From NCBI GenBank assembly GCA_963730185.1, contig CAVSQW010000015.1:480001-544000 (forward strand): 64,000 bases of DNA, given 5' to 3'. The position numbers and the translations under genes were made by a program. Positions 7,724 to 24,657 of this stretch are shown here, one piece after another. Source of the stretch: an uncultured Gemmatimonadales bacterium. Its GTDB lineage: Bacteria > Gemmatimonadota > Gemmatimonadetes > Gemmatimonadales > GWC2-71-9. The notes under the pieces are model-generated. The model was given only the letters and a program-made list of their open reading frames with translations, searched no databases and was not told the DNA's origin. Every line of letters starts with the position of its first letter. The first letter of the stretch is position 1.

Positions 7724-7756
7724 GTGCCTCGCCGATCCGATCTTGGGGCAACCCCG

Positions 7757-8169
7757 GTGCATCGGACGCTGACCGAGGCCGAGCTGGTGGCCTGGGGTGA
7801 GGCGCTGGGCCGGGATCTTCCCCCGGACAGGTCCTCTGGCTCCAGGGCGACCTCGGCGCCGGCAAGACCACCTTGGTGCAGGCCATCGCCCGGGCCCTCG
7901 GCGTGGCTCACCCCGCCACCAGCCCCACCTACGACCTGGTCCACCGGTACGAGGCGCCCCGAGGGCCGATCTATCACGTGGATTGCTACCGGCTTCGCCG
8001 CCCCGACGACGCGGCTGACCTCGACTGGGAGACCCTCGCGAGCGGAGACCTGCTGCTGGTGGAGTGGCCGGAGCGGGCGGAGGCCTGGGCCCCGCCGCCC
8101 ACCCGCCGGATCGGCTTGGCCCACGCCGACGACCCCGACGTCCGGATCCTGACCACGGAGGCACCGTGA
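7757..8169 (+). CDS. tsaE: tRNA t6A biosynthesis ATPase TsaE; frameshift near 7820-7826 (C-run, probable sequencing error)
   Basis: After the shift reads QVLWLQGDLGAGKTT; also SPTY, YHVDCYRL, LVEWPER. Confidence 0.9.
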
Positions 8170-11304: not shown

Positions 11305-12024
11305 ATGGTTCTGACGCTGCAAGCCACGACGCAGGTCCCCGCCAGCGTCTGGGAGCTGGTCCTCTACTCCAGTCTCGAAACCAAGATCGTCCTCGGCGTC
11401 ACGCTGGTGTTCTCCTTTTTCTCCTGGTTCTTGATCGTCTTCAAGGGGTGGCAGTTCCGGCGTCTGCGGCGCCAGGGGGAGCGCTTCTTCCTGGCCGTGG
11501 AGGCGGCTCCCAAACTCCAGGATGCCTACCGGGTGGTCGCCAAGCTTCCGGCCTCGCCGTTCCACCGGCTGTTCCGCGAGGGGATGACGTTCTACAACGA
11601 GATTCGGCCCGGGGTGGTGCTCGATGGGCCGCCGCCTCAGCACCGCGCCTTCGAGCCCACCCAGCTCGAGGCCTTCAAGATGGTGCTCGGCAAGGAGGTC
11701 GCGACCGAACGCGACCAGGCCGGCCGGTTCGTGCCGTGGCTGGCGACCATCGGGAGCGTCAGTCCGCTCCTGGGTCTGCTGGGGACGGTGCTGGGCGTCA
11801 TGGACGCCTTCATCGGGATCAGCACCAAGGGGTCGGGCAACATCTCGGCCGTGGCGCCCGGCGTCGCGGAGGCCCTGATCACCACGGTGGCCGGCCTGGC
11901 TGCGGCGATTCCGGCCGTCATGGCCTACAACTACTTCGCCGGGAAGACGAGCCAGTTCGAGGGCGACCTCGAAGGGTTCGGCGCCGCGCTGGTGGGTTGG
12001 ATGGCGCGTGAGGGGTGGCTCTAG
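11305..12024 (+). CDS. tolQ: TolQ (MotA/TolQ/ExbB family)
   Basis: LATIGSVSPLLGLLGTVLG, VAPGVAEALITTVAGLAAAIPA; first gene of the tol-pal cluster. Confidence 0.92.
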   Translation: MVLTLQATTQVPASVWELVLYSSLETKIVLGVTLVFSFFSWFLIVFKGWQFRRLRRQGERFFLAVEAAPKLQDAYRVVAKLPASPFHRLFREGMTFYNEIRPGVVLDGPPPQHRAFEPTQLEAFKMVLGKEVATERDQAGRFVPWLATIGSVSPLLGLLGTVLGVMDAFIGISTKGSGNISAVAPGVAEALITTVAGLAAAIPAVMAYNYFAGKTSQFEGDLEGFGAALVGWMAREGWL

Positions 12025-12025
12025 C

Positions 12026-12457
12026 ATGGCGGGCGGGTTGGGGAGCGGGCTCGGTGGGCGGCGGCGGCTCGTGCCGAACGCCGACATCAACGTCACCTCG
12101 TTGGTCGATATCGCCTTCGTTCTCCTGATCATCTTCATGATCACCGCGCCGATCATGCAGGGCGGGGTGGACGTGGAGCTCCCCAAGGCGGAGGCCCGAC
12201 CGATCACGTCGAAGGACGGCGTGGTGGTCAGCGTGGATCGGCAGGGCCAGATCTGGGTCGACAACATCCGGGTGTCGTATCCCGAGCTTCAGGCGAGCAT
12301 CCGGCGCCTGGTGGATCAACGGAACACGTCGAGCGTCTACGTTCGGGGTGACCGGAACGTCCCATACGGTACCGTCGTCCGGGTGCTGGCGGCGCTGCAC
12401 GACGCGGGCATCACGTCGGCGGGCCTGGTCACCGAGGAGGAAGACGTCCGCCGATGA
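12026..12457 (+). CDS. tolR: TolR/ExbD
   Basis: INVTSLVDIAFVLLIIFMITAP, VRGDRNVPYG. Confidence 0.9.
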   Translation: MAGGLGSGLGGRRRLVPNADINVTSLVDIAFVLLIIFMITAPIMQGGVDVELPKAEARPITSKDGVVVSVDRQGQIWVDNIRVSYPELQASIRRLVDQRNTSSVYVRGDRNVPYGTVVRVLAALHDAGITSAGLVTEEEDVRR

Positions 12458-13143
12458 GGTTCCGACGGACCGTGGCCATGCCCCGGGGCGGCTTTGCGGT
12501 GGGGCTCGTGGGGACGACGGTGGTGCACCTGGCGGCGCTGGCCGCCTTGGTGGCGAGTGTGATGCTCCGGCCGAAATCCTACCAGCCGACGATCTACTCG
12601 GTCGAGCTGGTGGCGGCCCCGGCGCCGACCCGCGCGCCCAAGCCCCGAGCCGAGACGCCGCCGGCGCCGCCCCCGCCGCCGGTGGCGCCGACCAAGCCCG
12701 AGGTGAAGAAGGCACCGGTACCGAAGCCCAAGGTGCCGAAGAAGATCGATCCCAAGGTGGAGCCGACCACCAAGCCCGTGACCCAGGAGGTCCCGAATCC
12801 CGGGGCGACGCCCAGCACCGGCAACGACGTCGACAACGTCCGGGTGGAAGGGAAGGTCTTTCCTTTCCCGGACTATCTCCGCCGGATCGTGAACGAGATC
12901 CTCCGGCGCTGGTCGGCCCCGACCGGCCTGCCGCTCTCGGCGGAAGTGAGTTTTACCATCATGCGGGACGGTTCGGTGACGAACATCAGAGTCGTGCGAT
13001 CCTCACGGAACTACACCTTCGACCTCGAGGCCGAGGGGGCGGTCGAGCAGGCCGGTGGAGACAAGGCCTTCGGGCCCCTGCCGACCGGTTGGCCGCAGGA
13101 GACCCTCGACGTGGCTTTCCACTTCACCCCGAGGGAGCGCTAA
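12454..13143 (+). CDS. tolA: TolA/TonB-like energy transducer
   Basis: N-terminal TM with His, Pro/Lys-rich spacer, TonB_2-like C-terminus (FTIMRDGSV..VVRSS); between tolR and tolB. Confidence 0.75.
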   Translation: MRFRRTVAMPRGGFAVGLVGTTVVHLAALAALVASVMLRPKSYQPTIYSVELVAAPAPTRAPKPRAETPPAPPPPPVAPTKPEVKKAPVPKPKVPKKIDPKVEPTTKPVTQEVPNPGATPSTGNDVDNVRVEGKVFPFPDYLRRIVNEILRRWSAPTGLPLSAEVSFTIMRDGSVTNIRVVRSSRNYTFDLEAEGAVEQAGGDKAFGPLPTGWPQETLDVAFHFTPRER

Positions 13144-14462
13144 TGCGTCGTTGGCTGATCCTGGGACTGCTCGGCGTGGGGTTGGCGGGCCCGGCCACTG
13201 CGCAGGTACCGGACTCCTCGCGAGCCCAGGCTCGCGACACAGTCGTCCTCTACGGCAAGTACAACCCGGCCGTGCGGCCGGCCATCGTGATCCTGCCAGG
13301 GCCGGGGATCGACTCGGTCCGGTCGATCTTCGCGCGCGACCTCGATTTCAGCGACCGGTTCGAAATCATCGCCCTGCCGGACGGTGGGGCGCCGGTGGCG
13401 GCCACGGATAGCGCGCTGATCAACTACGAGCTGTATCGGACACTTCGCGCCTCGCTGGCAGTCGAGCTCTCAGGCGAAAGTGGAAATGTTACCATCCGTC
13501 TCTTCGATCTTCTCAACGAGCGGGTTCGGAACGAGATGACCGTGCCGGTGGACGGCTCCGGGGTGGGCGAGGCCCGGATGTCGGTGCACCGGATGTCGGA
13601 CGACGTGGTGGGGTGGATCACCGGGCGCTCGGGCGTGGCGGCGACCCGGATTCTGTACCTCAACCGGGTCGACGCCCGGGTCTATCGGGTGGACAGCGAC
13701 GGATACGGCGCGGTGCCGGTGACGCCGCCGGGCCAGCTGGTGGTGTCGCCGACCTGGTCTCCGGACGGGTCGCGGCTGGCGTATACCCAGTTGGGCGGTC
13801 CGGGGCCGGGCGTGATCATGCTTCAGTCGATCGCCACCGGAACCAGGTTGGTGGTCCCGACGACCGACCAGGGGCAGAATATCACCCCGGCCTTTTCGCC
13901 TGACGGGCGGAGCCTGATGTTCTCGCGGATGACCGAGCAGGCGTCGAACCTCTACGCCGTGAACGTGGCCGACCTTTGCTGCGCGGAACGCCTGACGGCA
14001 GGCAGGTTTGCGCAAAATCTATCGCCCGTCTATTCTCCCGATGGCCGGCGCGTCGCGTTCGTCTCGAACCGGTCCGGGTCGCCTCAGATCTACTCGATGG
14101 CGGCCGACGGCACGGACCAGGATCTCCTGGTTCCGTACGACTTTGGATCTACCGGATCGTCGTATGCGCCGGACTGGTCACCTGACGGAACCACCATCGT
14201 GTTTCACCGGGAGTTCGACGGCGTGCCTCAGGTCGTCAGCTTCGATCTGGCCAGCCGGGTGGTACGTCAGCGAACCTCGTCGGGCCGGAACGAGGACCCG
14301 AGTTTCGCCCCCGACAGCCGCCATGTGGTATTCGTATCGAACCGGTCGGGACGAGGGCAGCTCTTCGTCATCGATCTCGAAACCGGTCGGGTCCGGCAGA
14401 TTATCACGCCTGGGGTGGCCCGCCTGCCCTCCTGGTCCCGTTCGCTCACACGTGGGAGATGA
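13143..14462 (+). CDS. tolB: TolB beta-propeller protein
   Basis: Signal peptide, RDLDFSDRF, repeated PD40 motifs (PTWSPDG, PAFSPDG, PVYSPDG, PDWSPDG). Confidence 0.92.
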   Translation: MRRWLILGLLGVGLAGPATAQVPDSSRAQARDTVVLYGKYNPAVRPAIVILPGPGIDSVRSIFARDLDFSDRFEIIALPDGGAPVAATDSALINYELYRTLRASLAVELSGESGNVTIRLFDLLNERVRNEMTVPVDGSGVGEARMSVHRMSDDVVGWITGRSGVAATRILYLNRVDARVYRVDSDGYGAVPVTPPGQLVVSPTWSPDGSRLAYTQLGGPGPGVIMLQSIATGTRLVVPTTDQGQNITPAFSPDGRSLMFSRMTEQASNLYAVNVADLCCAERLTAGRFAQNLSPVYSPDGRRVAFVSNRSGSPQIYSMAADGTDQDLLVPYDFGSTGSSYAPDWSPDGTTIVFHREFDGVPQVVSFDLASRVVRQRTSSGRNEDPSFAPDSRHVVFVSNRSGRGQLFVIDLETGRVRQIITPGVARLPSWSRSLTRGR

Positions 14463-15019
14463 CTGACATGCAGCTGCGATCCCTCGTTCTCGCCGGGCTG
14501 GTGTTTGCCGTCGCGTGCGGTAAGAAGAAGCCCGAGACCACGCCGGAGCCGACGTCCGGACCCGTTGCCCCGCCGCCCGCACCGGCGCCGGCCCCGCCCC
14601 CGCCGCCGCCGGCCGACAACTCCGCCGCCGAGGCCGCGATGCGGGCCGAGCTGATGGGCTCGCTCACGGCGCCGATCCACTTCGAGTACGATCAGGACGC
14701 GATCAGCTCGATGGATGCCGCGATCCTCGACCGGAAGGCCGCGATCATGCAGGCCAACCCGGGCGTCCGGATCCGGATTGCGGGTAACGCCGACGAGCGC
14801 GGCTCCGACGAGTACAACCTGGTGCTCGGCACCAAGCGGGCGACGGCGGCCAAGCGCTATCTCGAGTCCAAGGGGATTGACGCCGGTCGGGTCGACATCA
14901 TCTCCTACGGCGAGGAGCGGCCGGTCGACCGGGGCGAGAACGACGCGGCCTGGGCCAAGAACCGGCGTGACGACTTCGAGGTGGTGTCCGGCGCCGAGCG
15001 CCTGGTCGCGCCCAGATGA
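14459..15019 (+). CDS. pal: Peptidoglycan-associated lipoprotein Pal (OmpA family)
   Basis: Lipobox AVAC, GNADERGSDEYNLVLG.KRA, SYGEERP, WAKNRR. Confidence 0.93.
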   Translation: MTDMQLRSLVLAGLVFAVACGKKKPETTPEPTSGPVAPPPAPAPAPPPPPPADNSAAEAAMRAELMGSLTAPIHFEYDQDAISSMDAAILDRKAAIMQANPGVRIRIAGNADERGSDEYNLVLGTKRATAAKRYLESKGIDAGRVDIISYGEERPVDRGENDAAWAKNRRDDFEVVSGAERLVAPR

Positions 15020-15813
15020 TCCGCCGGCTCGGCGTCGCGGGTCTCCTCCTGGTGGCGGGGTGCGCCACCAAGGGCAACGTTCGACGGGTGGAGACCCAGG
15101 TGGCCGTCCTCCGCGCCGAGACCGCGCGGCAGGACTCGGCCCGTGCCGCCGAGCTGTCCCGGATCATCCGGTTGCAGCAATCCATCCTGGACTCGCTGGC
15201 CGCGGGGCGGCAAGCCCTGCACGTGCTGGATGCCCGGCTGGGCAACGACTTGGTCGACATCCAGCGCCAGCTGCTCCAGGTCCAGGAGCTTGCCGGGCAG
15301 AGCCAGGCCCGGCTTTCCCGGTTGCAGGCCAATCTCGACGCTCGAGCCGCCGCCGCCCAGGTCGAGACCGCGAACGCGATGGCCGACTCGACCCATGCCG
15401 ATTCGGCCGCCGCGGCTCCGCCGCCCCCGATGCAGGCGCCCTCCGCCGATCAGATGTATCAGGGCGCGCTTCAGCAATTCCGCCGGGGCAGCGTGATTCT
15501 GGCGCGGCGGGCCTTCCTGGATTTCTTGAAGACCTACCCGGACCACCCCCTCGTCCCGGACGCGACGTACTACGTCGGTGAGACGTTCGAGACCGAAGCG
15601 CCCGATTCGGCGCTGGCCCGCTACAACGAGGTGGTCAAGCGCTTCCCGCAATCCACCCGGGCGCCGACCGCCCTGTACAAGATCGGGCTCATGGCCGAAC
15701 GTCGACAGGATGCGTCCACGGCACGCGCGACGTACCAGCGCGTCATTCAGCAGTACCCGCGGTCGGAGGAGGCCGACCTCGCCCGCGAACGATTGGCGAG
15801 CCTCAAGCCGTAA
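15016..15813 (+). CDS. cpoB: Tol-Pal associated CpoB/YbgF-like TPR lipoprotein
   Basis: Lipobox VAGC, coiled coil, TPRs (FLKTYPDHPLVPDATYYVGE, APTALYKIG, YPRSEEA); follows pal. Confidence 0.85.
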   Translation: MIRRLGVAGLLLVAGCATKGNVRRVETQVAVLRAETARQDSARAAELSRIIRLQQSILDSLAAGRQALHVLDARLGNDLVDIQRQLLQVQELAGQSQARLSRLQANLDARAAAAQVETANAMADSTHADSAAAAPPPPMQAPSADQMYQGALQQFRRGSVILARRAFLDFLKTYPDHPLVPDATYYVGETFETEAPDSALARYNEVVKRFPQSTRAPTALYKIGLMAERRQDASTARATYQRVIQQYPRSEEADLARERLASLKP

Positions 15814-15825
15814 GCAGGACCCTCC

Positions 15826-18800
15826 ATGGCGCGGTCCCTTGGCGAAATGCCGTTCCTCGATCACCTCGAGGAGCTCCGATCCCGAATCCTGAAGGCGCTC
15901 GCGGCGCTCATCGTCGGCGTGGGTCTCGGGATCTGGCTGGTGGATCGCTTCAAGCTGATCGACATCATCAAGGCGCCGATCACGCCGCTCCTTCCGACCG
16001 GCCGGCTGGTAGTGCAGGGGCCCACCGAGCCGATCATGATCCTGCTCAAGCTCGGGTTCGTGACCGGGCTGGTGCTGGCTTCGCCGGTGATCGTCTGGCA
16101 GATCTGGGCCTTTCTCTCGCCGGCCCTCTACGCCAAGGAAAAGAAGGCGGTCATCCCGTCGCTCTTCGCCGGGTTGGTCCTCTTCCTCACCGGCTCGATC
16201 CTGAGCTTCGTGTACGTGGTGCCCCGGGCCTTGCAGGTCTTGCTCGGGTTCCAGGCCGGCTCCTTCGAGAACCTGATCACGTTCGAGAAGTACTACGACT
16301 TCGTGCTCCAGGTGGTCCTGGCGATGGGGCTGTCGGCCGAGCTGCCGATGGTCATCATCCTCCTGGCGATGCTCGGCGTGGTGACGCCGAAGATGCTGGG
16401 CCGCTTCCGCCGCTACGCGATCGTGTTGTCGTTCGCCGCCGGCGCGGTCCTCTCGCCGGGGACCGACGTCTTCACGATGCTGCTGATGACGGCCCCCCTG
16501 ATTCTCCTCTACGAGGTCGGGTACCTCGGGACCGTGATCGTGCACCGGCGCCGGCTCAAGGCGGCCGCGCGCGCGGCCGCGATCGGGCTCCTGCTCCTCC
16601 TGGCCCTGGCGCCGAGTCGGGCGGAGGCGCAGCGGCCACCGGTGCAGCGGGCCCCACCGGGTCGGCAGGCCGTCGATTCCCTGGCCGACTCCCTCCGCAA
16701 CCGGCCGATCGACTCCGCCAGTGCCCGCCGTCTGGGGCTCCCCACCGCCCCGAGCCTCAGCTTCCCCGCCGCCGACTCCATCATCAACGCCCTGCTCGAT
16801 CTCGAGGGCTTCGAGACCACCCGCTACCGGGCCGACACCGCCCAGGTGAACGCCGTAACGCGGGGCATCAAGCTCGAAGGGCACGCCATGACCGAGCGGG
16901 CCGGCTCCACGCTCGAGGCCGGGATCATCACCTATCGGGAGGGGGACTGCCGGTTCGAGGCGGAGCGGGGCCCCCAGCTCTTTCAGGCGGGGACGGTGGT
17001 CGTCGGCTCGGGGGTCAAGTACGACACCTGCGTCCAGCGCGGTCTGGTGCAGAACGGACTGACTTCGTTTCCGCAGGGAGGGGCCAACTGGTATCTCCGG
17101 GGCAACATCGCGATGGACTCGTCGTCCAGTCGGGTCTACGCCAGCGCCCGGGAGGTGACCAGCTGTGATCTGCCCGAAGCCCACTATCACTTCTCCGCCC
17201 GCGAGCTCAAATGGATCAGCGGGTCGGTGATGGTGGCCCGGCCGGCGGTGCTCTACATCCGCGACGTCCCGATCGCCTGGATCCCGTTCCTTTTCCAGGA
17301 CACCAAGCGGGGCCGACGGTCGGGTATCCTGACGCCCCAGTTCGGTTTCAACGACATCGTCCGGCCCTCGCGCGGCTACAACCGGACCATCCAGAACATC
17401 GGCTACTACTGGGCCCCGAACGACTATCTGGACGTGCTCGGCCGGTTCGACTGGTTCTCCAACCGGTACATCGAATTCGGGCTCGAGGGACAGTACCGCT
17501 GGATCAACCAGAACATGCGGGGCGCGGTCAGCTATTCGAAGAGCAAGCAGATCGGCGCGGGCGGCGGGACCAACACCCGGATCGTCTGGAACAACTCCTG
17601 GACCCGGAACAACACCACGCGGATCAACTGGAACGTTGACTACTCCACCAATTCGCAGATCATCCGGAACAACTCGATCGACCCCCGGTTGGTGACCCAG
17701 GACATCCGGAGCTCGGGGACGATCAGCAAGCAGTACCGGTGGGGCAACCTCAGCATCGGCGGCACCCGGAGCCAGAGCGTGACCGACGGCAGCGGCCGCC
17801 AGACCCTGCCGTCGGTGACCCTGTCGCCCAAGCCGATCGATCTCGGAACGACCTTCACCTGGTCGCCCGACCTGAGCTTCACCATCGAGAACGCGTTCAA
17901 GCAGGCCCGGCCGTCGCTCCTGATTCCCCGCGACGACGGCACCGTCGACACCGTCAAGGTGACCGGCTCGAACCGGGCCGCCAGGTTCAATCTGAACACG
18001 CCCCTCCGGATTGGCGGGTTCAACTGGACCAACTCGATGACCTACATCGATTCGAGCTCGGTCGGCGCCCGGCAGGCGACGGTCCGGATCCCCGACGAGA
18101 GCACCGCCGACCCGACCGACTCGGTGACCGTGCGGCGGCTCAGCAACAGCGGGTTCGGCAGCGGCTTCAATTGGAACACCAGCATCAACCTTCCGATCCT
18201 CTTCCGGAACAGCTGGAAGGTGACGCCCTCGCTCGGCATCACCAACACCACCAGCGGCGACTTCGCGGTCCGGAACGCCCGGACCGACGGGCAGTGGGTG
18301 ACCCAGGGCAAGCGGTTTCAGTTCGGCGTCTCGATGGCGCCGACCTTCTACGGCTTCTTCGGCGGGATCGGCCCACTGGCCCGGATCCGGCACACCATTC
18401 AGCCCAGCCTGAGCTACGCCTACGCCCCCTCCGCCACGGTGCCGCTGGCCTACGCCCAGGCCGTGACCTCGCCGGGGCAAACGCCGCGGCTTCGGAGCGA
18501 TCCGACCCAGACGCTGACCCTGACCCTGAACCAGAACTTCGAGGCCAAGACCCGGCGCCCACCCGGCGACACCACCGACGCCAACGTCAAGAAGGTCCGG
18601 CTGCTGAGCATCCAGACCTCGCCCATCGGGTACGACTTCGAGCAGGCCAAGCTCCCCGGCCGGGCCGGCTGGACCACCAGCTCGCTGACCAATAGCTTGA
18701 TGAGCGATCTGGTGCCGGGGTTCAACTTCTCGATCACCCACGACCTCTGGAAGGGCGTGGTCGGGAGCGACACCGCGACGCTGAGCCCGTTCCTCGCCGG

Positions 18801-19335
18801 GGTTACCGCCAGCTTCTCCCTTTCGGGTCGCACCTTCGCGTCCCTCGGCAAGCTGCTCGGCCTCGGCAACGGCAACGCGACCCCGGACGCCGGCCCGGCG
18901 GCCCAGCCGACGGGGACGGGTTACCCCGACCCGTTCGGACCGGCCCAGGCGCTTCGCCGGGGCACCGGGTTCACCTCGGCCCAGAACTACACCCGGGGCG
19001 GGCAGGGCTTCAACATGTCGGTCAACTACACCTTGAGCCGCACCCGTCCGTCGGTCACCACGCCGAATCCAACCTCGCAGAGCAACATCGCGCTCAACTC
19101 GAGCTTCTCGCCGACTCGGTTTTGGCAGGTGAACTGGACCACGCAGTACAACGGCAGCCAGCATCGGTTCGAGTCGCAGCAGCTCAACTTGACCCGCGAC
19201 CTCCATGACTGGCGGGCGACCTTCTCGTTCACCCGCTCGCCCAACGGGAACTTCGCCTTCTCGTTCCTGATCATGCTCATCGACCTGCCGGACCTCCGGT
19301 TCCCGTACCAGCAGTCGACCATCCAGCCGCAATGA
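15826..19335 (+). CDS. tatC: TatC (aa 1 to ~243) fused in frame, through an internal signal-peptide-like segment, to an LptD-type outer-membrane beta-barrel (aa ~269-1169)
   Basis: TatC motifs MPFLDHLEELRSR, QIWAFLSPALYAKEK, LSPGTD, PLILLYE; LptD-like motifs TSCDLPEAHYHF, RRSGILTP, GYYWAPNDYLD, RDLHDW; no stop between them. Confidence 0.88.
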   Translation: MARSLGEMPFLDHLEELRSRILKALAALIVGVGLGIWLVDRFKLIDIIKAPITPLLPTGRLVVQGPTEPIMILLKLGFVTGLVLASPVIVWQIWAFLSPALYAKEKKAVIPSLFAGLVLFLTGSILSFVYVVPRALQVLLGFQAGSFENLITFEKYYDFVLQVVLAMGLSAELPMVIILLAMLGVVTPKMLGRFRRYAIVLSFAAGAVLSPGTDVFTMLLMTAPLILLYEVGYLGTVIVHRRRLKAAARAAAIGLLLLLALAPSRAEAQRPPVQRAPPGRQAVDSLADSLRNRPIDSASARRLGLPTAPSLSFPAADSIINALLDLEGFETTRYRADTAQVNAVTRGIKLEGHAMTERAGSTLEAGIITYREGDCRFEAERGPQLFQAGTVVVGSGVKYDTCVQRGLVQNGLTSFPQGGANWYLRGNIAMDSSSSRVYASAREVTSCDLPEAHYHFSARELKWISGSVMVARPAVLYIRDVPIAWIPFLFQDTKRGRRSGILTPQFGFNDIVRPSRGYNRTIQNIGYYWAPNDYLDVLGRFDWFSNRYIEFGLEGQYRWINQNMRGAVSYSKSKQIGAGGGTNTRIVWNNSWTRNNTTRINWNVDYSTNSQIIRNNSIDPRLVTQDIRSSGTISKQYRWGNLSIGGTRSQSVTDGSGRQTLPSVTLSPKPIDLGTTFTWSPDLSFTIENAFKQARPSLLIPRDDGTVDTVKVTGSNRAARFNLNTPLRIGGFNWTNSMTYIDSSSVGARQATVRIPDESTADPTDSVTVRRLSNSGFGSGFNWNTSINLPILFRNSWKVTPSLGITNTTSGDFAVRNARTDGQWVTQGKRFQFGVSMAPTFYGFFGGIGPLARIRHTIQPSLSYAYAPSATVPLAYAQAVTSPGQTPRLRSDPTQTLTLTLNQNFEAKTRRPPGDTTDANVKKVRLLSIQTSPIGYDFEQAKLPGRAGWTTSSLTNSLMSDLVPGFNFSITHDLWKGVVGSDTATLSPFLAGVTASFSLSGRTFASLGKLLGLGNGNATPDAGPAAQPTGTGYPDPFGPAQALRRGTGFTSAQNYTRGGQGFNMSVNYTLSRTRPSVTTPNPTSQSNIALNSSFSPTRFWQVNWTTQYNGSQHRFESQQLNLTRDLHDWRATFSFTRSPNGNFAFSFLIMLIDLPDLRFPYQQSTIQPQ

Positions 19336-23129: not shown

Positions 23130-24115
23130 TCTCCGAGGCCGCGCCGGTGACCCTGGCCGAGCTCCAGGCTTCGGTGCAGGACGAGCTCGACCAGGTCCGG
23201 CGCTCGCTCGCCGACCTGGTCGCCGCCGACTTCGGCCTGATCGACGAGGTGAACTCCCATCTCCTCCGGATGCAGGGCAAGCTGTTCCGGCCCACGCTGC
23301 TGCTGCTCGTGAACCAGGCGACCCGGAGTCCCGATCCCCGCGCGGTTCGCCTGGCCGCGGTGGTGGAGCTGATCCACCTGGCCACCCTGGTGCACGACGA
23401 TTCGGTGGACCACTCGGTCCTTCGCCGGGGCATGCCGACGATCAACTCGCTGTTCAGCCACCAGGTCTCGGTGATCATGGGCGACTATCTGTACTCGCGC
23501 GCCGTGATCCAGCTGGTCGAGCTGGGCGACCTTCGGGCGCTCGGGGTGCTGAGCCGGGTCACCAACGAGATGACCATCGGGGAGATGCGACAGCTCCTGG
23601 CCCACGACCCGCTGACCTTCTCCGAGGAGAGCTACGACCTCCTGATCCGGGCCAAGACGGCGTCGCTCCTCTCGGGGGCGTGCGAGTGCGGGGCCCTGAC
23701 GGCGTCTCCGGAACGAACGGCCGCCATGGCCCGCTTCGGAAACGCCCTCGGAATGGCTTTTCAGATCGTCGACGACCTCCTCGACTTCACCGAGGTCGAG
23801 GCCGTTACCGGCAAGCCGTCCGGGCAGGACCTGAAGGAGCACAAAGTGACCCTACCGTTGATTCATGCCCTGCCGCGGCTCTCCCCAACGGAGCGGAACG
23901 ACGTGTCTGGCCTGATGAACACCCCCGTGCCGTCCCCCGATCAAATCGCGGTGGTGGTCGAGCACGTAGGGCAGGCGGGCGGACTCGACTACGCCCGTGA
24001 CCGGGCGATCCGGCATGGCCAGGAGGCCGAGCGGGAGTTGGAGCATCTTCCCGCGAGCCCAGCCCGGGAGCTGCTCCGGGCCAGCATCGCGTACGTGCTG
24101 GACCGCCGCCGCTGA
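23126..24115 (+). CDS. Long-chain trans-polyprenyl diphosphate synthase (IspB/HepT family)
   Basis: GKLFRP, ATLVHDDSVD..LRRG, KTA, AFQIVDDLLD, GKPSGQDL. Confidence 0.92.
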   Translation: MISEAAPVTLAELQASVQDELDQVRRSLADLVAADFGLIDEVNSHLLRMQGKLFRPTLLLLVNQATRSPDPRAVRLAAVVELIHLATLVHDDSVDHSVLRRGMPTINSLFSHQVSVIMGDYLYSRAVIQLVELGDLRALGVLSRVTNEMTIGEMRQLLAHDPLTFSEESYDLLIRAKTASLLSGACECGALTASPERTAAMARFGNALGMAFQIVDDLLDFTEVEAVTGKPSGQDLKEHKVTLPLIHALPRLSPTERNDVSGLMNTPVPSPDQIAVVVEHVGQAGGLDYARDRAIRHGQEAERELEHLPASPARELLRASIAYVLDRRR

Positions 24116-24384
24116 TGAAAGGCCCCCGCCGCCCGCGTTTCTACGCGACCATCCTCGTCACCGGGTTCCTGCTGGGCGGCTTTCTGAACGCCTTCCTCCG
24201 GAAGGTGCTGCCCGACAGCCCGACCAAGGCCTTCTTCACCTTTTCCGTGCAGGGGGAGGTTGGCCCTGTCCCGATCAACCTGCTGGTGGTACACTTCACC
24301 CTCGGTCCGGTGGGCGTCGACATGTCACTCCTGAGTGTCGTCGGAGTCCTCCTGGCCTATCTGGTGGCGAAGTCGCTCTTTTAG
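24115..24384 (+). CDS. Small membrane protein (DUF4321-like)
   Basis: 89 aa with two hydrophobic segments; coupled to the upstream stop (TGATG). Confidence 0.6.
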   Translation: MKGPRRPRFYATILVTGFLLGGFLNAFLRKVLPDSPTKAFFTFSVQGEVGPVPINLLVVHFTLGPVGVDMSLLSVVGVLLAYLVAKSLF

Positions 24385-24399
24385 GCGGAGGCCGGCAGC

Positions 24400-24657
24400 A
24401 TGTTGGGCAACTTGGGTTTTTCGGAAATCATGATCCTCCTACTGGTCGTGCTCTTGGTGTTCGGAGCTCGCCGGCTACCCGAGATCGGGCAGTCCCTGGG
24501 CAAGGGGATTCGGGAGTTCAAGCGGAGTCTGACTGACACGCAGGAGGCGGTGACCAGCGGGATGGACGACCGGCCACAGGTGACCGGGCGTCACATCGAC
24601 GCGCCTCCCTCCCAGCAACAGCCGACCGGTAGCGAGCCGAAGCGGCTGTCGCAGTAG
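24400..24657 (+). CDS. tatA: Twin-arginine translocase TatA
   Basis: LGFSEIMILLLVVLLVFGARRLPEIGQSLGKGIREFK; SD GGAGG. Confidence 0.95.
   Translation: MLGNLGFSEIMILLLVVLLVFGARRLPEIGQSLGKGIREFKRSLTDTQEAVTSGMDDRPQVTGRHIDAPPSQQQPTGSEPKRLSQ

Follow-up and report, generated by a model that had tools for sequence, protein, structure and literature searches.

A tatC-lptD gene fusion widespread in one Gemmatimonadales family, with a predicted signal peptidase site between its halves

How could a single reading frame supply both a protein of the inner membrane and one of the outer membrane? The question is raised by a gene in a 64,000-nucleotide stretch of DNA from an uncultured Gemmatimonadales bacterium (assembly GCA_963730185.1, contig CAVSQW010000015.1, positions 480,001 to 544,000; the whole stretch is referred to here as the window, and positions are counted from its first letter). 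The gene encodes TatC, of the twin-arginine translocation (Tat) system, and in the same frame an LptD-family protein, the two being joined by a retained signal-peptide-like segment. An earlier interpretation made from the letters of the DNA, hereafter the sequence-only reading, had proposed a self-processing polyprotein, a misnomer, as it is the cell's own signal peptidase that would cut. The TatC-LptD fusion is real and widespread, is apparently unpublished, and is most likely processed by this ordinary enzyme.

The gene occupies positions 15826-19335 of the forward strand as one open frame of 1169 amino acids and, as had been claimed, starts with a complete TatC (residues 1-239, 15826-16542). 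The Pfam model PF00902 is matched from end to end by residues 12-224 (model positions 1-208 of 208, E 1.1e-59, 202 bits against a cut-off of 25.1), and the NCBIfam tatC model TIGR00945 is matched above its cut-off as well (185.8 vs 132.7). At the threshold used, a hydropathy scan picked out five of TatC's six helices. In the alignment to 4b4a, F96, E105 and E172 of the fusion pair with F87, E96 and E165 of Aquifex TatC, which we take to be signal-binding and cavity residues. What sets this TatC apart is that it lacks a free C-terminus after six helices: transmembrane helix 6 (TM6) continues into a seventh hydrophobic segment (TM7).

The C-terminal part is LptD-type, again as first proposed, and all the motifs quoted for it are present. 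PF19838 (LptD_2) matches residues 470-940 (17233-18645; model positions 2-432 of 464, E 1.6e-36, 126.4 bits against 22.5), and the proteobacterial LptD models of NCBIfam match weakly. Searched against the PDB as a single sequence, the LptD part returned nothing relevant, but a profile of 81 LptD parts matched solved LptD structures (7omm, E 3.6e-10; 8h1r, E 3.8e-7) and LptA (E 0.0015), matches that point to an LptA-like jellyroll in the N-terminal portion of the LptD moiety. Its Atlas neighbours are LptD clusters throughout (0.97-0.99). Cysteines occur only at positions 375, 402 and 447 of the fusion, with no conserved cysteine near the C-terminus, and a search for the cysteines of the E. coli-type disulfides between jellyroll and barrel did not find them.

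A frame of this kind might arise from an indel, and two observations speak for an assembly or sequencing artefact: tsaE, close by in the window, is frameshifted, and two other public runs each have a contig with a 1-nucleotide deletion at 16556, which may come from a relative or be a short chance match. However, other contigs of the same two runs cross the junction with 0 gaps over 599 and 229 nucleotides (the comparison is one of contigs, no piece of which spans the whole gene), and a JGI protein is 94% identical across the junction, also gap-free. The studied genome is denoted G000 and its family f1. In an order-wide search, 100 of the 117 other f1 genomes showed a single stop-free match spanning the junction, and cutting out the region revealed an in-frame junction in three more (G042, G062 and G043), so that 103 of 117 are fused (~88%), two of them unpublished genomes (G092 and G213). 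Among proteins of 642-2046 amino acids, a search with the TatC part returned 909 matches; the best 120 of these all carry both PF00902 and PF19838, and the organisms named for them are all Gemmatimonadales or Gemmatimonadota. Because the same in-frame join recurs in the family genomes, in the JGI protein and in gap-free contigs, the fusion is not an assembly error. Nor do the junctions suggest that a programmed frameshift ends TatC there: slippery heptamers are as frequent in the junctions as in the controls (2 of 68 in each), and out-of-frame stops are not enriched (32 vs 42 in the +1 frame, 1 vs 6 in the -1 frame). With the join present in hundreds of independent assemblies, we rejected both the artefact and the frameshift, and give the two together a negligible probability.

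The segment between the halves is H240-Q269 (16543-16632), whose coordinates and A-x-A site had been correctly given. A basic loop, H240-A252 (16543-16581), forms the positive-inside tail of TatC and is predicted to serve also as the n-region of an internal signal peptide; in 67 of the 68 fused genomes its net charge lies between +2 and +6. There follow an h-region, I253-A262 (16582-16611), which would form the seventh helix with its N-terminus inside (N-in), and a c-region (16612-16632) with a helix breaker, P263, and a predicted signal peptidase I (SPase I) site, A266-E267-A268|Q269. The predicted mature LptD-type protein (16630-19332, 901 amino acids) would begin with a Pro-rich tail, followed by the LptA-like jellyroll region and the barrel region.

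Junctions were compared in 68 fused genomes, 22 split tatC-lptD pairs, 5 free LptD proteins and 120 database fusions, the last being the best 120 of the 909 matches. One split pair, that of G032 (L030), was dropped for a frameshift in the LptD signal-peptide region just past the start, either an assembly error or a pseudogene. In hydrophobicity and length the h-region equals the free LptD signal peptides, its best 8-residue window scoring 3.20 in fused, 3.06 in split and 3.17 in free LptD, and it has not been lengthened into an anchor, as the median uncharged run is 15 residues in fused and 14 in split genes. A proline or glycine lies at -8 to -3 in 66 of 68 fused junctions. The first glutamine past the h-region has small residues at -3 and -1 in 64/68 fused, 19/22 split and 5/5 free cases, and in 113/120 of the database fusions listed; if the next glutamine is allowed, the counts rise to 68/68, 22/22, 5/5 and 118/120, compared with a background of 12% (573/4719) of the glutamines in LptD bodies. 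Under the latter rule, residue -1 of the 68 fused genomes is A in 58, G in 9 and S in 1. By such simple rules the junction has all the features of a Sec/SPase I signal peptide: basic n-region, h-region, helix breaker and small residues at -3 and -1. The loop ahead of the h-region is 7 to 42 residues long and the site is retained throughout. The longest loop, in G062 (L051), is rich in Gly, Asp and Pro and acidic, and there too the site is kept.

A glutamine after the cleavage site also seems to be a habit of the organism. In a crude G000 gene set, 138 of 188 signal-peptide-like N-termini have a glutamine after an [ALV]xA site, as against 2.8% in protein bodies, and the same rule holds for 58 of the 68 fused junctions. 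As the pattern occurs both genome-wide and at the junctions, the fusion bears what is apparently the G000 signature of a cleaved signal. Such a Q-rule was set out for Bacteroidetes in PMC5837995, where Gemmatimonadota are not mentioned in the part consulted. That the internal segment is an LptD signal peptide, as the sequence-only reading had it, with a conserved SPase I site, is thus supported by inference from these comparisons.

We therefore consider it probable, with good though not full confidence, that SPase I cuts the fusion at A268|Q269; TatC would then stay in the inner membrane, extended by a short seventh helix, and LptD would be freed for the outer membrane. In such a pathway, Sec would insert TM1-6 co-translationally; the basic loop would remain cytoplasmic, fixing TM7 as N-in; and the h-region would insert in that orientation and start export of the 900-residue remainder. 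After cleavage by SPase I at A268|Q269, the new N-terminal glutamine would probably be cyclised to pyroglutamate, BAM would fold LptD, which would pair with LptE, and TatC would be left with a 29-residue extension that might be retained or trimmed. In the part of PMC5449189 consulted, a periplasmic reporter was released from a polytopic protein through an SPase I site engineered behind its last helix, which gives the cleavage step an experimental precedent.

The Tat consensus resembles S/T-R-R-x-F-L-K. The RRRLK stretch before TM7, likened to such a motif in the sequence-only reading, might act as a twin-arginine signal: Sec could hand over the final helix together with LptD to Tat, or, as that reading suggested, the stub could bind the signal site of TatC itself. 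RR is indeed found in 60 of 68 fused junctions, and a loose RR-x-hydrophobic pattern is more frequent in fused junctions (26/68) than in split TatC tails (2/23); moreover, membrane proteins with dual Sec-Tat targeting exist, as described in the part of PMC5449189 at hand. Yet neither RR-x-hydrophobic-hydrophobic nor S/T-RR-x-F occurs in any of the 68 fused junctions or the 120 database fusions listed, and RR is missing from 7-8 of the 68 while 21 of 23 unfused TatC tails possess it. According to the same part of PMC5449189, hand-off from Sec to Tat needs a minimum of about 8 residues before the tethered Tat signal and a weakly hydrophobic final helix; in the fusions RR lies 0-2 residues past TM6 in 48/68 and at least 8 residues past it in 1/68, and TM7 is Leu-rich. 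We rejected a twin-arginine role on the absence of a strict motif, the closeness of RR to TM6 and the frequency of RR in unfused tails, and regard it as very unlikely.

Another alternative is that LptD is made mostly from an internal start, at or near the GTG at 16540, and that the long frame matters for TatC only. This GTG is in frame, and among the 68 fused genes 41 offer at least one possible start codon in frame within the zone. In the other 27, however, no in-frame ATG, GTG or TTG is present, the codon at the position of 16540 is GTG, ATG or TTG in only 19/68, and GTG is used at background level (54/104 Val codons in the zone vs 777/1543 in TatC). Shine-Dalgarno-like motifs are seen in only 7/68, with none before 16540 in the window, and TatC would in any case still emerge as a fusion. 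On the missing start codons, the background level of GTG and the lack of a Shine-Dalgarno-like motif, an independent start was rejected as well; its chances appear slight.

A rival that leaves the frame and the signal peptide intact supposes that the chain is cut slowly, under regulation or not at all. LptD would then be tethered for a while to TatC through TM7, or the retained helix would serve the Tat translocase. Retention of the fusion in 103 of 117 family genomes fits such a role, as do the Pro-rich linker that follows the predicted cleavage site and the finding of a single TatA/B gene in G000. It is opposed by a site as canonical as that of free LptD, by the variable loop before TM7 and by about seven events of fission or loss, and TM7 would be N-in, opposite to the orientation of the helices of TatA and TatB. 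We judge it unlikely. A related view, that a link between export and the outer membrane was selected, with delayed or regulated cleavage holding LptD by TatC until it reaches BAM, and/or the seventh helix working in a Tat translocase with a single TatA, we likewise regard as improbable.

SPase I cleavage remains our preferred account, and several points weigh against it. The site calls come from simple rules of our own and the Kyte-Doolittle scale rather than from SignalP; the genomes compared are kin and not independent; and the conservation of the site could in part be inherited from the signal peptide of free LptD. The persistence of the fusion in ~88% of the family could signal some selection for it. 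Finally, the fusion is the sole tatC and the sole LptD-family (LptD_2) gene found in G000, but this genome is 82% complete and second copies of either gene are possible.

How the two genes came together can be traced to some extent. Elsewhere in the phylum the two are separate neighbours that as a rule overlap. Outside the order, lptD directly follows tatC in 9 of 9 genomes from which the region was cut out, and no TatC frame exceeds 451 amino acids in the 42 genomes of the phylum sample (one of them the unpublished G297). Split pairs inside the order mostly overlap (ATGA or GTGA) or abut (TAG-GTG), and the fusion likely arose from a coupled tatC-lptD pair in an ancestor, whose overlapping stop and start were lost. 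The remaining f1 genomes comprise 11 with separate or two matches (G209 was not examined) and 3 without a match. In family f2, a frame of more than 1000 amino acids is found in 2 of 31 genomes (G035 and G079), each resting on a single assembly. A tree built with FastTree from 94 LptD parts (2 of 96 were dropped as too short), rooted on f2 and interpreted by eye without a formal test, recovers f1 as a single clade (support 1.0) and indicates three fusions in all, that of f1 and two separate ones in f2, along with four re-splits (G009+G002, G138, G022 and G041+G084) and loss of the TatC half on three occasions (G201+G247, G053+G255 and G048). Most simply, f1 was fused at its root.

The re-splits and losses imply that the halves are separable, which also favours the cleavage account. 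The 1:1 co-production put forward in the sequence-only reading is indeed a consequence of the gene; that the fusion was repeatedly split, or its TatC half lost, speaks against co-production being essential, and the fusion is probably close to neutral. In the lineages that lost the TatC half, lptD has its own signal peptide after cpoB and tatC lies elsewhere in the genome. Nested among f2 TatC is a single clade (1.0) that unites the tatC genes of these lineages with that of G104 and with a further copy from G080, itself still fused; this suggests that a foreign tatC was gained and the fused one then deleted. This f2-type tatC (L102-L106, L119 and L120) is the sole tatC in G048, G053, G104, G201, G247 and G255, and an extra copy in G080. 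The f2 genome G035, whose main tatC is fused, also has a second tatC standing alone (G035:C2, L040), with tatA behind it and, ahead of it, two genes for proteins with RR in their N-termini.

A published TatC-LptD fusion was not found in the open literature searched, the scope of which did not extend to supplements and subscription papers. In the part of PMC3827258, on TatC diversity, that was consulted, the words 'fusion' and 'fused' are absent from the text, and its supplementary domain-architecture table could mention one; the consulted part of PMC5102672 has engineered TatB-TatC fusions only.

FbcH of Bradyrhizobium japonicum, reportedly described by Thony-Meyer, James and Hennecke in 1991, is said to be a cytochrome b-c1 precursor in which a polytopic protein, an internal signal and a second protein are made together and cut in two. 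It would be the closest precedent, sharing the single open reading frame, the polytopic first protein and the internal signal sequence, but both of its products are inner-membrane subunits of one complex, whereas those of the fusion serve Tat and Lpt in different membranes. The split tatC-lptD pairs of other Gemmatimonadota have the same gene order and homologous proteins, and their LptD signal ends in small-x-small|Q (22/22 within the order); they differ in the stop and new start between the genes and in an LptD with an n-region of its own. Bacteroidota-type LptD likewise has PF19838, which was also matched in a Bacteroides control, and an N-terminal jellyroll-like region, but is not encoded as the tail of a TatC. 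The LptD of F. johnsoniae also lacks disulfides, according to the part of bioRxiv 10.64898/2026.10.03.756453 consulted, so that disulfides are not universal and the fusion without C-terminal cysteines is not alone. Dual Sec-Tat proteins, as far as the consulted part of PMC5449189 describes them, are similarly polytopic, have basic residues ahead of the final helix and export a large domain; the fusion differs in lacking the Tat consensus, in a loop that is too short, in its hydrophobic last helix and in a natural SPase I site. Polyproteins of Flaviviridae also contain internal signal sequences cut by the host signal peptidase, but they are viral proteins of the eukaryotic endoplasmic reticulum with no homology to the fusion (PMC7601889, in the part consulted).

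If cleavage is confirmed, the fusion would be a natural bacterial polyprotein from which most of a large uncultured family obtains both a protein of the inner membrane and a barrel of the outer one. It would then be clear that a polytopic membrane protein can carry LptD through export at its C-terminal end, and that a seventh helix is tolerated by TatC. With its recurrent fusion, fission and replacement, the gene would be a clean example of neutral fusion made possible by a signal peptide that was kept. Annotation is affected as well: the fused proteins listed are named TatC only, where they have a name, so that LptD can be wrongly scored as missing, and this is corrected here.

The setting of the gene is as had been described. 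A run of tolQ, tolR, a tolA/TonB-like gene, a tolB-like gene, pal and a cpoB-like gene (11305-15813, forward strand) ends 12 nucleotides upstream of the fusion, and tatA (24400-24657, forward strand) lies about 5 kb away and, by Pfam match and genome search, is the sole TatA/B-family gene found in G000. A promoter and terminator scan was not above shuffle level (1 vs 0.5 and 7 vs 4.0). LptE and LptF/G families and two SPase I genes are present in G000. The classical LptD family PF04453 and the plant-type glutaminyl cyclase PF05096 were not found in this 82% complete genome, nor was LpxC, which is yet present in 15 of 15 genomes of the same genus. One lipoprotein of G000 resembles glutaminyl cyclases of Bacteroidota most closely (E 2.6e-62; L122:252-1163, G000:C14:55951-56862); like the two SPase I genes, it counts in favour of the cleavage account. 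Its gene adjoins lptF/G on the opposite strand; the three LptF/G matches there (G000:C14:53219-55828) include one gene apparently in two pieces, a possible frameshift. In the window, tsaE (7724-8169) is broken into two frames near 7830, probably by a sequencing indel. An aromatic amino acid lyase gene (PF00221, 19349-20941) lies directly 3' of the fusion, and a DUF4321-like gene precedes tatA (24115-24657).

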